From an uncultured delta proteobacterium (GTDB lineage: Bacteria > Desulfobacterota > Binatia > UBA9968), in assembly GCA_963755715.1 (NCBI GenBank), contig CAVWLW010000014.1:29759-93758 (forward strand): a stretch of DNA of 64,000 nt, given 5' to 3'. This document shows positions 16,853 to 63,064 of the stretch, in pieces. Both the position numbers and the translations under genes were made by a program. The number at the start of each line of letters is the position of its first letter. Positions within the stretch are counted from its first letter, which is position 1. Below the pieces are notes generated by a model. The model saw nothing but the letters and a program-made list of their open reading frames with translations, searched no databases and was not told the origin of the DNA.

Positions 16853-17896
16853 TTGTTTGCGGCACTTGTTTTTATTCTATTAGCGGCTTCAGGTGCACCG
16901 GGCCAAACCAAAAAGCCGACATCGCTCGCCGAGCTGGCGGCGTATATGGGGCAGGACCGCGAGCAACTTTTATTCACCGGCGCCAAGAGCGAGGGCAAGG
17001 TCGTTTGGTATACCTCGCTCGCCGGCGGTTCTTACAAAGCGATCGTCGAAGTCTTCGAAGCGAAATATCCCGGGGTCAAAGTCGAAGTCTACCGAGCGGG
17101 CGGAGCGGACCTTACCGTCCGGCTCAGCGAAGAAGCGAAGGCACGGCGCTACCTCGCCGACGCTCTCGAAACTACCGAAGAGCCGCTTGCGGCATTGCTC
17201 GAAGCCGGGATAATCGCCCCATTCAATTCGCCTTACCTGCGCAATTATCCGGAGCAAGCGCTCAAGAGGGCTGACAAAGGTCTGATCTATTGGGCCAACG
17301 CGCGCGAATCCTACGTTGGTTTCGCTTACAACAAGACCAAGCTGCCCGCTTCGGCTGTGCCGAAGAATTTCGATGGTTTGCTCAATCCGGAGCTGAAAGG
17401 GCGGATGGCGTTCGGTTCGGGCGGCACCGCGCCGGAAATTATCGGCGCGATGGTCAAGACTAAGGGTGAGGCCTTCGTCAAGAAATTGAAGGCCCAAGAG
17501 ATCCGGCTTTTTTCCATGGGCAGCTCGGCGGTTCGTGATCAAATTGCCGGCGGTGAGATCGAAGCGGCGCCGGTGATTTTCAGAACTCACGCGATCGAAG
17601 CCGCCGAAAAAGGCGCGCCCATCGAGTGGCTGCCGATGGACTTAGTGCCGGTGCATGCCGGCTCGGCGATTCTCGCGGCGCGCGCGCCGCATCCGCACGC
17701 GGCGCTGCTAATGGTCGACTTTCTGTTCAGTGCCGACGGCCAAGGCGTGCTGGAAAAATTCAAATACGGCAGCGCCGCCAAGGACTACGGTTTCAAACGC
17801 TGGTACTTTACCGCCGGTCTCAACGCCGACCAACTCGAACGTCAGGTGACTTACTGGGAAAAGCTGATGCAGGGAATCGTCAAGAAAGGCGGCTGA
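16853..17896 (+). CDS. Extracellular solute-binding protein (Fe3+/thiamine-type ABC SBP)
   Basis: GAKSEGKVVWYTSL, PKNFDGLLNPELKG, APHPHAALLMVDFLFS. Confidence 0.88.
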   Translation: MFAALVFILLAASGAPGQTKKPTSLAELAAYMGQDREQLLFTGAKSEGKVVWYTSLAGGSYKAIVEVFEAKYPGVKVEVYRAGGADLTVRLSEEAKARRYLADALETTEEPLAALLEAGIIAPFNSPYLRNYPEQALKRADKGLIYWANARESYVGFAYNKTKLPASAVPKNFDGLLNPELKGRMAFGSGGTAPEIIGAMVKTKGEAFVKKLKAQEIRLFSMGSSAVRDQIAGGEIEAAPVIFRTHAIEAAEKGAPIEWLPMDLVPVHAGSAILAARAPHPHAALLMVDFLFSADGQGVLEKFKYGSAAKDYGFKRWYFTAGLNADQLERQVTYWEKLMQGIVKKGG

Positions 17897-17943
17897 CTTG
17901 GTGGCAGTCTGCTTATAGGTGCGTTAAATCGTTCGAAACTTGC

Positions 17944-17968
17944 TCACGTCCCGGCGAACCGCCGGTGA
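17944..17968 (-). promoter_or_regulatory. SECIS-like hairpin
   Basis: Starts 11 nt after the UGA: UCA-CCGGCG-GUU-CGCCGG-GACGUGA; the loop begins with G. Confidence 0.6.
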
Positions 17969-18389
17969 TCGACCATCAGTCAGCGATCTTGTACGACTTT
18001 GATTCCTGCCTTGGCGAAGATCTCCGCCGCGGCGTCGTTGCGGATGCCCGACTGAAGCCAAACTGAATTCGGTTTCTTGGCCAGGATGTCGTCGATATGA
18101 CCGGCGACATCATGAGAGCGGCGAAAGACATCGACCATATCGATTTCGCCGGGGATGTCGGTCAGGTGGCGATAAACTTTCTCTCCGAGAATTTCTGTCG
18201 CTTCGGGATAGTAAACCGGCACCGGGACGATTTCGAAGCCTGCTTTCTTGAGATACATGCGGCACGTAGACTGACGGTTGATCGGCTTGCGCTTCGGTTT
18301 TGATGCCGAGCACCGCGATGCGTTTCGGTGGTTTGAATCAGCGCGCGAATCTCTTCGGTATTCTCGATCAGGTTGTCTTGCCAGTTCAT
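17944..18389 (-). CDS. CoA-binding protein (YccU-like), candidate selenoprotein with in-frame UGA at 17980-17982 (also frameshifted near the N-terminus)
   Basis: IDMVDVFRRS, VWLQSGIRND, then KVVQDR-UGA-LMVDHRRFAGT*. The family has DRC at this position. Confidence 0.82.
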
Positions 18390-18435
18390 TGCGCTAGTTT
18401 ACCAGATGCCGTGCGTCCGAGCGACGGCTGGATTT

Positions 18436-18840
18436 TCATGCCGGCGTGCGGCAAACGGCTTCGATGTTGTTCCCGTCCGGGTCACGGACGAAGGCGCCAT
18501 AGTAATTGGAGTGATATTGCGGTCGCAATCCTGGCGCGCCGTTGTCACGCCCGCCCGCGGTCAATGCGGCTTGATAAAATGCATCGACAAGAGCGCGGTT
18601 GTCGACGCGGAAGGCAACGTGCACTGGTACGTTGCCCGGTCTACCCTGGCTTAGCCAGAACTCGGGACTCACGCCCTGTGTGGTGGTTTCTTTCGCTCCA
18701 TAGCCGACAACGTCCGCCCTGCCAGTGACCGACGCGGGCAGTTCTTTCAGTAGAGAAATTCCCATCGCGCCCAACGCCGCTGAGTAAAAAGCTTTGCTTT
18801 TTGCCAGATCGCTGACGATGACGCCGGTGTGGTCGATCAT
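18436..18840 (-). CDS. VOC (glyoxalase/bleomycin resistance) family protein
   Basis: MIDHTGVIVSD, HVAFR, GGRDNGAPGLRP.YH.NYYGAFVRDPDGNNIEAVC. Confidence 0.9.
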   Translation of the reverse strand: MIDHTGVIVSDLAKSKAFYSAALGAMGISLLKELPASVTGRADVVGYGAKETTTQGVSPEFWLSQGRPGNVPVHVAFRVDNRALVDAFYQAALTAGGRDNGAPGLRPQYHSNYYGAFVRDPDGNNIEAVCRTPA

Positions 18841-43561: not shown

Positions 43562-44852
43562 TCAGACTTCCTCCTGCAAAGTTTGCAGGGCGCGGAGAAT
43601 CAATTGTCGCCTGAATTCTTTTTCCTTCTCCGGGGGCAACTCGGGATTGCCGGTCGGACTGACGATGCCGCCGGAAGCGATCGCGCGCAGCGAACCGACT
43701 TCTTTCGCCACCGGGATCATCGTGCAGATTTGCGTAACCGGAATTTCGAGTTTTTCGATTTCTTTGCTGATCGCTGCGCCGCAGCGAGTGCTGGAGCCTC
43801 AAGTCGAGGTGAGGATCACGCCGGTTACGCCGGCCGCTTTCAGGCGCTGGGCTATGTCTTTACCGATGTTCGTCGCGTTTTCCACGGCGGCATGAGCGCC
43901 GCCGGTGGAGTGGACGAACTCGTGGAGTTTGCCGATCACGCCTTCGCGTTCGAGCTCGCGCATGGTATCGAGCGGCACCAAGCGGTTGGGATCACGATTG
44001 GCAATCGCCGTGTCGTACCCCGAGTGAACGGCATCGTATTTATCCGCATCGAGAGAATTGACGCCGGTGACGGGAATCGTCGTAAAGCGCGTCGGACGGC
44101 CAGGCTCGATGTTGTCGGGATTGCCTTCGGGCACCAAGCCGCCGTCGGTGACGAGTGCGATGACTGCCGACTTGAGATTCGTGAGCGGCGCGGCCGGTTT
44201 ACTCCCGGCAAATTTCGGCGGCGGCGATTTCCGAGTGAAATTCATCGCCGCGCAATTTCGCGAGCAGCATGTCGACGGCGCGCTCCGCCGGCGGTTTAGC
44301 GGCAAACTCATTGCGCTTGATGCCACGCGCCAGATAGCCTTCGTTTTCCGGTTTGCCGATCGCCTCGCGGCGAGCCAGTTTCACTCCGAGCGCGGCCATG
44401 CGCTGAATCGTCGGCACCATGCGGGCGATGGTGGCACCGGAGTTGATGATATAGAGATTTTTTCGATACAGGCCGGCGCCGACGTTGTCTTCGTCCATGC
44501 CCGCTACCGCCACGATGCCGAGCCGCTGTTGCGCGGCTTGGCAGATCGCGCCGCAGGCGATGCCGTAACGGCCGCTCTCGAACGCCGGGCCGGCGATCAG
44601 CAGGTCCGGTTTGTATTCGGCCATTCGTTGGATCAATTGGTCGATCGTCTGCGCTTGGTGCTCGGCGAAATAGTTATCACCGCAGAATATCGTCGCGACG
44701 ATTTCGCCGTGCTCGCCCAGCGCTTGCTGCAGCGCGCGGCCGGGGCCGATAAGACCGGGTTTGATCTGCGGGCCGACTTCGGCTTTGTCTTCGCCGCCGA
44801 TCTGGGCGAAGAACTGATTCAAGTAATGGACGACGCGAATCTGTGGGTTCAT
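43562..44852 (-). CDS. grdB: Glycine/sarcosine/betaine reductase selenoprotein B family, Sec UGA at 43799-43801 (plus indels near 44220 and 43620)
   Basis: VVHYLNQFFAQIGGEDKA, CGDNYF, AGPAFESGRYGIACG, HSGYD, DPNRLVPLD, then GVILTST-UGA-GSSTRCGAAISKEIEKLEIPVTQICTMIPVAKEVGS. Confidence 0.92.
43771..43787 (-). promoter_or_regulatory. SECIS-like hairpin
   Basis: Starts exactly 11 nt after the UGA: UCGCUGC-GGC-GCAGCGA, 17 nt, with G first in the loop. Confidence 0.75.
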
Positions 44853-61705: not shown

Positions 61706-63064
61706 CTACTTGTTCGTGAAATCTTTGAGGTTAATGCGCTGCCAGACTTCGCGCGGAACACGATGGCGCGGCGTGTAAGCGGCGAGGGAAGGCTTGGCTG
61801 TGGCATCGACGCCCCACTTTGCGGTGTTGCCGTCTTCCTTGGTTGAGGGGTCGAGATCGGAGCCGCGCGCATTTGAAATGATCGCGATGTCGCGATCCGG
61901 CTGGCATCGGGTCGCGATCGCCCAGTTGACTTGCCGATCATTAAAGATGTCAACGTCGTGATCGACGACTACGACGCGCTTCATGTAGAGATCGGCGCCC
62001 AGCACGGCCAAGATAGCATTCTTCGCCTGGCCGGAGATCCGTTGCTCGATGGACACGTAGCAAGTAAACGGCGCAGGAACGCGCACGGCTTTCACCGTCG
62101 GCACCATCGCCCGCACCGCGCGATAAAGATTCGCTTCGATAGGCGTGGTGGATAGCATCAGGTGGTCGAGATGTCCCACTGTGATGTCTTGGAAAATCGC
62201 ATCGCGCCGGTGCGTGATCGCGCGCACTTTCAGCACTTCGCGTTGGCGCTCACCGAGACTGTAGCCGGTGAACTCCCCGAAAGGTCCTTCGGGCGTGCGC
62301 TCGTGCGGCAAAATTTCTCCTTCGAGGATCATCTCCGCTTGGGCGGGAACGAGAAGATCGGAAGTTTCGCACTTGATAAGCTCTAAAGGTTCGCCAAGCA
62401 AGCCCGCCCATGATCGCGCGTTCGTCCTCATCGATGGAGCCGATCGCAAGACAGCCCAGCGCAATGGCCGGATGGACGCCGATGGCGAAAGCCACGGGCA
62501 GCGGTTTTCCTTGAGCTTCGGCTGCGCGTTGAAATTCCCAGAGATGCTTCGCCAACGTGAGATGAATCGAAGTCGTATCGCGGCCCTTGATCATCAGCCG
62601 GTTGTAGGCGCAGTTCCAAGTGTCGCTGTTCGGATCTTTGGCAAATGAAATGGCGGCCGTGATGTAGGGACCGGCGTCTTCCTGATGGTGGAGAATCTGC
62701 GGCAGTTTATAGAGATCGATCCGATCACCGGTGAGAATGACCTCTTTTACCGGCGCTTTGGAAACCATTTTCGGCGGAATAGGTTTTTCCATCGCGCGCA
62801 GATAAGCGCGTTGCATCTCCTCAGGCTTGGCGTGGATTGCCGCCGCCAATCGAGAGCGGCCGGCATGAAGATTGGTCAAGACGGGAAACGACGTGCCTTT
62901 TACTTTTTCGAAAAGTAAAATCGGCCGCCGCTTGGCTTCCTGTTCGAGCTTCACCGTGATGGCGGTGATTTCAAAAGCCGGATCGACTTCGCGGGAGACG
63001 GCAAGGAAGTCTTCCGGGTGATTTTGTTTGATCAGATCGAGATAGCTACGAGGTCTTGAGGCAT
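61706..63064 (-). CDS. UbiD-family decarboxylase (frameshifted)
   Basis: EDAGPYITA, WNCAYNRL, EGPFGEFTGY, DHDVDIFN...WAIATR, GSDLDPS. Confidence 0.92.

Follow-up and report, generated by a model that had tools for sequence, protein, structure and literature searches.

Stand-alone coenzyme A (CoA)-binding proteins of the Pfam family PF13380 (CoA_binding_2) are represented among solved structures by TT1466 (1iuk/1iul), PH1109 (2d59/2d5a) and a Klebsiella YccU-like protein (2duw), which share one fold and a C-terminal motif, [DN]R-C-[LM]M.EH, that reads CLMVEHKR in TT1466. Bacterial selenocysteine insertion sequence (bSECIS) elements have in turn been captured in a model with a stem of at least 4 bp, a loop of 3-9 nt with G in one of its first two positions, a distance of 16-37 nt from the UGA and an energy of -7.5 kcal/mol or lower, as set out in section 5 of a 2026 catalogue of prokaryotic selenoproteins (PMC13188914). 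Here we describe a gene in which the two meet. It lies on the minus strand of a 64,000-nucleotide stretch of DNA from an uncultured member of the Binatia (assembly GCA_963755715.1, contig CAVWLW010000014.1, positions 29,759 to 93,758), hereafter the window, and its product belongs to the same family and fold as the three proteins above (phmmer E 1.1e-26 to 1iuk). Where these proteins have Cys, however, the gene has a UGA codon, read here as selenocysteine (Sec), followed by an in-frame SECIS-type hairpin. We consider it highly probable, on comparative sequence evidence, that this is a selenoprotein gene encoding a PF13380 protein of ~147 residues, in which the invariant Cys at the start of the C-terminal helix would be replaced by Sec. 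A first-pass annotation of the window had already proposed a candidate selenoprotein of the YccU-like CoA-binding family with UGA at the conserved Cys, and both the PF13380 match and the alternation of TGA, TGC and TGT among relatives bear this out.

On the minus strand the frame ...AKAGIKVVQDR meets a TGA at 17982-17980 and then continues as LMVDHRRFAGT for 11 codons up to a second TGA at 17946-17944, which is the same reading that the first-pass annotation had given for the frame beyond the first stop. Between the two stops lies a hairpin with a perfect 6-bp stem, formed by a 5' arm CCGGCG (17965-17960), a loop GTT (17959-17957) and a 3' arm CGCCGG (17956-17951). The stem starts 14 nt after the UGA and the apical loop 20 nt after it. 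The core of this hairpin, with G first in the loop, had been correctly recognised from the window alone. Its placement 11 nt after the UGA holds for the window, where a U-A/C-G extension with a bulged A lengthens the stem, but not for the relatives, which lack the extension and in which the conserved stem begins at 14 nt. The features of the locus are collected in Table 1.

Table 1. Features of the CoA-binding protein gene in the window, and the hairpin classes found among its Sec forms
Feature	Position in window	Strand	Detail
CoA-binding protein gene (PF13380, single-domain, ~147 aa in intact relatives)	17944..18389	-	ATG at 18389, true stop 17946-17944; three frames as assembled
In-frame UGA, predicted Sec codon at the family's invariant Cys (VVQDR-U-LMVDHR)	17980..17982	-	31 TGA genomes vs 11 TGC/TGT; Cys near-invariant in wider family
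Putative bSECIS region: 14-nt spacer (17979-17966) plus hairpin	17951..17979	-	Nucleotide-level conservation; bSECIS model passed; covariation
True stop codon TGA, 4 nt past hairpin	17944..17946	-	Frame translation
First 1-base insertion (frame A to frame B), probable assembly error	18325..18328	-	Alignment column 67, ~18326; base absent at 18326/18328 in runs X1, X2, X6
Second 1-base insertion (frame B to frame C), probable assembly error	18258..18260	-	Alignment column 134, ~18259; base absent at 18258-18260 in X2, X6
Hairpin class, window's genus			CCGGCG-GUU-CGCCGG; spacing UGA to loop 20 nt
Hairpin class, Rokuibacteriota / Methylomirabilota			CCGGCG-GCUC-CGCCGG, CCGGCA-GCUC-UGCCGG, CCGCCG-GCUC-CGGCGG; spacing UGA to loop 20 nt
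Hairpin class, second Binatia family, 7 bp			GGUCGCC-GGC-GGCGACC; spacing UGA to loop 23 nt

The UGA recurs at the same codon across genomes. Searching 61 related genomes with the C-terminal 104 residues as query gave a strong orthologue in 35, and in these relatives the gene is one frame of ~146-150 codons. The match holds a single TGA in 23 of the 35 and none in the other 12. All 23 TGA sequences have it at an identical codon, VVQDR-TGA-LMV[DE]HR, and the 11 TGA-free sequences that were fetched have TGC (9) or TGT (2) there. One of the 23 TGA rows (G005) and one SelA row of the search described below (G035) are marked as unpublished, and no claim made here rests on either. Moreover, a pattern scan of one genome per species with GAYCGNTGANTNATGGTNGANCAY, which needs D-R-U-x-M-V-[DE]-H and which divergent forms would escape, returned 30 loci, comprising three chance matches and 27 true homologues, eight of the latter being new. 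This brings the TGA form to 31 species-level genomes (23 + 8), which by their record titles belong to Candidatus Binatia (many deposited as 'uncultured delta proteobacterium'), with two Rokuibacteriota and two Methylomirabilota. The recurrence of TGA, TGC and TGT at one codon ahead of a conserved LMV[DE]HR, which the first-pass annotation had named as a check on its proposal, is what these genomes display.

In a collection of 5.8 billion proteins, 97 of the best 120 cluster representatives stop precisely at ...QDR. Another 22 continue with Cys and then LMV[ED]HRR, and the remaining one is a fragment; the names that they carry are limited to 'predicted CoA-binding protein', 'CoA-binding protein', 'uncharacterized' and 'hypothetical protein'. 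With 97 of the nearest 120 clusters cut at this codon, the Sec form would be common in soil metagenomes. It would also be systematically mis-annotated, the database proteins being 11-14 residues short and their reactive residue lost. In a quick maximum-likelihood tree of 60 rows (26 Sec, 34 Cys), which leaves out the window's frameshifted copy, L015, L037, L060, L061 and duplicates, seven changes between Sec and Cys are needed, and well-supported branches force at least five of them.

Constraint on the nucleotide sequence was seen beyond the UGA. Among 19 Sec sequences of the window's genus the third codon position is variable in 38 of 40 codons before the TGA and in one of nine after it (a GAY codon), and synonymous variation returns at the first codon beyond the stem. 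The corresponding Fisher test (p = 1e-6) overstates the loss, since the sequences are kin. The window hairpin passes the bSECIS model with 6 bp, a loop GUU, a spacing of 20 nt and -9.4 kcal/mol; applied mechanically, the same model is passed by 30 of the 31 Sec forms versus 2 of the 11 Cys forms. A bSECIS prediction had been among the checks listed in the first-pass annotation, and its outcome favours the proposal.

The hairpins of the Sec forms fall into three classes (Table 1). An ungapped MAFFT alignment of these was not structural and was dropped for a covariance-model alignment of the 31 sequences. Here, 172 of 172 cells are paired, with two of the six pairs changing on both sides (G-C to C-G and G-C to A-U) and one changing to G-U. 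This level of covariation was reached by none of 500 shuffles, and sliding the 3' partner by 1-3 columns leaves 24-62% of cells paired. As a separate observation, a GC-rich palindrome of the type GGGGCGACCGGCCGGTCGCCCC stands ~15-25 nt beyond the stop in L006, L007, L009, L013, L018, L019 and L037, though not in the window, and may be a terminator or a REP-like element.

The genome of the window encodes tRNA-Sec, SelA, SelB and SelD (selC, selA, selB and selD), in line with the earlier expectation that the organism decodes Sec. The genes selD, selB and selA adjoin one another (G000 contig C3:71086-75186; loci L001, L003, L068 and L069), and selD has one in-frame TGA, being itself a selenoprotein gene, and is split in two frames. 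Of the 61 related genomes, 56 have a strong SelA, among them 22 of the 23 that have the TGA form. Within the genus, TGC stands at the codon in G027 alone (locus L005:1492-1938, minus strand; 92% complete, 90 contigs). This genome yielded no SelA, SelB or SelD and no tRNA-Sec above the Rfam threshold, and it is the only well-assembled genome of the genus in which none of the four was found. Its hairpin is kept, with a loop CUU in place of GUU (first loop G to C), and Glu stands for Asp four residues on. G027 looks like a recent conversion from Sec to Cys after loss of the Sec trait, a small natural experiment in which no Sec machinery was found, TGC occupies the codon and a relic hairpin has lost its loop G.

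Two further observations concern the Sec and Cys forms. The residue at position +4 after the Sec/Cys codon (window 17968-17970) is mostly Asp (LMVDH) in Sec forms and mostly Glu (LMVEH) in Cys forms, and Glu is also found there in four of the five Sec forms of the second Binatia family (L034, L035, L036 and L060). Two contigs come from the RNA library of run X15. One (record 11) covers 17866-18079, UGA and hairpin included, and is not taken as transcription or translation. In the other (record 10), over window positions 17894-17951, the 56 bases after the gene are swapped for 23 other letters; these agree with the 3' end of the Cys form of the G027 type (L005), so that Sec and Cys forms seem to occur side by side in soil samples.

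PF13380 is matched by the intact orthologue L006 with E 1.1e-31 (110.1 bits against a cut-off of 22.8) and by the C-terminal 104 residues of the window's protein with E 6.5e-29 (101.2 bits). NCBIfam has no specific model for the protein, and no selenoprotein-specific model among its entries matches it. The closest solved relatives by sequence are TT1466, the Klebsiella YccU-like protein and PH1109, all with [DN]R-C at this place. An AlphaFold2 model of L006 (predicted local distance difference test score, pLDDT, 97.8) has TT1466 (1iuk) as its best structural match (Z 23.5, root-mean-square deviation 1.4 over 136 residues; TM 0.85-0.91). Sec is residue 136 of the model, after the last strand (130-132) and ahead of the C-terminal helix (137-146).

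Position 136 is one of seven invariant columns in 42 diverse sequences, all of them Cys there and chosen for full length. Among the best 150 representatives at 50% identity, Cys is found in 92. Most of the others are fragments: 39 break off well ahead of the position or earlier still and 4 immediately ahead of it, while 7 are gapped there and 8 have a different residue. Counting only the 111 that extend to the column or stop at it, Cys is present in 92. A 133-residue YccU-type protein ending ...VVMNR (P0252) was considered as a second Sec lineage and rejected. A metagenome scan gave 80 loci, of which two ran off their contigs, and the 78 with a readable codon have TGC (69) or TGT (9), with no Sec form among them. 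P0252 is probably a fragment.

A number of points weigh against reading the gene as a selenoprotein gene or against the role for its Sec that we propose below. The bSECIS model is also passed by 114 of the 1954 TGA triplets in the window (5.8%). Folding energy against shuffles was rejected as a discriminator, since z-scores for the 48 nt that follow the codon range between -0.1 and -2.4 in Sec forms and between +2.1 and -2.8 in Cys forms, with no separation; the bSECIS-model and synonymous-site tests were used instead. Given the 5.8% of TGAs and the unremarkable z-scores, the hairpin on its own is weak evidence, and the evidence that goes beyond chance is comparative, namely the recurrence of TGA, the loss of synonymous variation and the covariation. 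One Sec form, L017, with a G-U pair in its stem, fails the energy cut-off of the model. Most of the Sec-form sequences are closely related to one another, and the alignment used for covariation had been fitted to the covariance model.

Moreover, SelA, SelB and tRNA-Sec were not found in one genome with the TGA form, G009 (93% complete, 670 contigs); its selD is cut by a contig end, which suggests that the sel cluster probably fell in an assembly gap. With regard to function, hhalign gave no alignment of the protein with the genome's own SucD, the alpha subunit of succinyl-CoA synthetase (SCS). With an ACD-like open reading frame (ORF) it aligned to the fifth strand only, the C-terminal part being misaligned, and that ORF has Ile, not Cys, after GPN. 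Lastly, the window's own copy of the gene is, as assembled, broken by two frameshifts.

This last point is the basis of the alternative that survives best, in which the family is a real selenoprotein family and this organism's copy is a pseudogene, the two insertions being real and the gene dead in this strain. The gene does run through three successive frames as assembled (MNWQDNLIENTEEIRALIQTT, then ...RIAVLGIKTEAQADQPSVYVP, then MYLKKAGFEI...), and alignment with three relatives places an extra single base in the window at ~18326 and another at ~18259. We therefore compared contigs of three DNA runs from different studies (X1, X2 and X6) over 17700-18700. A 1911-nt contig from X6 spans the whole stretch, lacks exactly these two bases and has the TGA at 17980-17982 unchanged; its substitutions, tallied by kind, were all assigned to other places. 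At most 0.67 of the sampled words of the window are present in any one run, so that no contig is proven to be of the same strain, which leaves the pseudogene some room.

However, the independent contigs are 95-99% alike and are without both insertions, the codons beyond each shift remain conserved and the proper frame is free of stops, and the same assembly splits other genes likewise (selD, a GrdB-like gene and a UbiD-like gene at 61706-62954). Because independent contigs lack the shifts and other genes of the assembly are split alike, both frameshifts are most likely assembly indels and the organism's gene intact, and we regard a pseudogene as unlikely. The first-pass annotation had itself cautioned that the assembly is error-rich, and this accounts for the two frameshifts but not for the TGA, which a contig from an independent soil run keeps.

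That the TGA is a genuine stop is considerably less likely again. The protein would then end at ...VVQDR without its C-terminal helix and the hairpin would be a terminator or regulatory element, as could be imagined of a GC-rich hairpin at a gene's end, and gene callers do end 97 of the nearest 120 database proteins there. Yet the 10 codons past the TGA are in frame and spell the same LMV[DE]HR helix that follows Cys in TT1466 and in the TGC/TGT relatives, the hairpin has no T-run after it, and a stop here would cost the protein the invariant Cys of its family. Moreover, G027, in which no Sec machinery was found, has TGC instead of TGA.

Slightly less probable still is that the UGA is read through in some other way than as Sec, by near-cognate insertion of Trp or Cys or by local reassignment. 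In its favour, 30 of the 31 forms have C next to the UGA on its 3' side, and UGA followed by C is a leaky termination context. On the other hand, a SECIS-type hairpin is maintained with covariation, the full Sec machinery is present, and the alternation with Cys is the typical Sec pattern, with TGC where the machinery was not found. A genome-wide reassignment of UGA does not apply, because other genes of the window end at TGA.

Finally, a sequencing error or recent nonsense mutation of TGC/TGT is already refuted in practice, for although the assembly does hold indel errors, those seen in it are not substitutions, this codon is TGA in 31 species genomes that were assembled independently, 97 of the best 120 database clusters end at the codon and a contig from another study's run keeps it.

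The neighbourhood offers no functional clue, as no conserved operon partner was found among the loci compared. Within the genus an alpha/beta-hydrolase gene is convergent and a Mo-hydroxylase gene divergent to the CoA-binding gene. In the window a glyoxalase/VOC-family gene (PF00903; 18436-18840, minus strand) lies 46 nt upstream on the same strand; among the compared loci it is upstream only in the window and G027 (L004 and L005), and is therefore an insertion and not a conserved partner. Elsewhere in the window, a GrdB-family gene (PF07355; 43562-44840, minus strand), the one that the first-pass annotation had called grdB-like, is in two frames split near 44200-44326. An in-frame TGA stands at 43799-43801 (...VILTSTUGSSTRCG...), and ~79 further codons of the frame follow it; the genome has five strong GRDB-family loci. 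The UbiD-family decarboxylase gene (61706-62954, minus strand) consists of two overlapping frames, one with UbiD_N and UbiD positions 3-137 and the other with UbiD positions 122-205 and UbiD_C, and this split is a probable assembly indel.

Taken together, the comparative footprint suggests that SelB would bind the hairpin and that selenium would be incorporated. A ribosome reaching the UGA at 17982-17980 would have the GC-rich hairpin, with G as first loop base, 14 nt downstream; the hairpin would recruit SelB carrying Sec-tRNA(Sec), and Sec would be inserted at the UGA. Translation would then go on for 10-14 residues (LMVDHRRFAG...) and end at the real stop 4 nt beyond the hairpin.

As a member of its family the protein would be expected to bind CoA. 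Within the CoA-binding Rossmann domain the Sec/Cys position comes after the last beta-strand, and the comparable stretch of SCS alpha is GPNC. We therefore put forward, tentatively, that Sec serves as a nucleophile or redox residue towards the thiol end of the bound CoA, by way of an Se-S bond or an acyl-Se intermediate, and it would probably lie close to that thiol. The first-pass annotation had likewise implied a redox-active residue. In practice, it is catalytic or redox-active cysteines that are seen to be exchanged for Sec, and a natural Sec form would therefore be a free functional label for the invariant Cys, marking this single residue of a widespread family, members of which have been solved by structural genomics, as its reactive centre. 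By extension, the invariant Cys of stand-alone PF13380 proteins in general may be catalytic and react with the thiol end of CoA, forming a selenenyl-sulfide or an acyl-selenoester where Sec takes its place, although we hold this to be possible rather than likely. If true, the whole family (YccU, TT1466, PH1109) would be CoA-dependent redox or acyl-transfer enzymes and not passive CoA binders, with roles such as the resolving of CoA mixed disulfides or of protein CoAlation, and selenium would represent an upgrade of this enzyme in soil Binatia and Rokubacteria. Within the literature that could be searched, no assigned function came up for YccU, COG1832, TT1466 or PH1109 and nothing usable on Cys123 of SCS, and nothing relevant on Cys, cysteine or thiol was found in PMC13018889.

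The first-pass annotation did not recognise the family as a standard selenoprotein, and rightly so, as neither PF13380 nor any CoA-binding entry is present in Table 1 of the 2026 catalogue, which lists 119 prokaryotic selenoprotein families and subfamilies (PMC13188914). In a 2022 review (PMC9312934), the GOS study (PMC2398784), the deep-Sep paper (PMC12013277) and a preprint on eight new families (10.1101/2022.07.06.499078), the term 'CoA' was found in unrelated uses only. A search of full-text literature, with supplements and subscription journals outside its reach, gave nothing relevant that links a selenoprotein with CoA-binding, YccU, COG1832, PF13380 or CoA_binding_2.

Among structures, the next-best neighbours after the family itself are CoA-binding subdomain 1 of SCS alpha (E. 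coli 1jkj/2scu; Cys123-alpha mutants 2nu6-2nua) and of the ADP-forming acyl-CoA synthetases (4xyl, 9y43). They share the fold (Z 12-13, with residues 15-147 of the model set against 1-144 of the chain, ranges within which Sec136 may fall at the place of Cys123-alpha), and 4xyl is also matched by profile (E 7e-10). Cys123-alpha lies near the CoA thiol, and in the genome's own SucD the equivalent strand is followed by ...LLGPNCPG.... These versions, however, are subdomains of large ligases with a phosphohistidine loop, whereas the protein described here is a stand-alone one of 147 residues.

The only catalogued name that ties Sec to CoA-thiol chemistry is the selenoprotein of CoA-disulfide reductase-type flavin adenine dinucleotide (FAD) oxidoreductases (TIGR03385; PMC13188914, Table 1); it offers an analogy for the proposed Se-S chemistry with CoA, while that protein is unrelated in fold and size, is FAD-dependent and would not be expected to be homologous. 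With the catalogued bSECIS selenoproteins in general, such as the fdhF type (PMC13188914), the present family has in common a UGA at the position of the homologues' Cys with frequent Sec/Cys interchange, and a stem-loop after the UGA with G first in a loop of 3-4 nt, 20-23 nt away and at -7.5 kcal/mol or below. Unlike them, it has a CoA-binding Rossmann fold and not a thioredoxin-like one, and its Sec stands alone in DR-U-LMV, without a UxxC or CxxU motif. The recoding would be ordinary bacterial Sec insertion and the family a genuine and apparently undescribed one, that is, apparently a new selenoprotein family within a known kind of system, which would add a non-thioredoxin, CoA-binding Rossmann fold to the selenoproteome.

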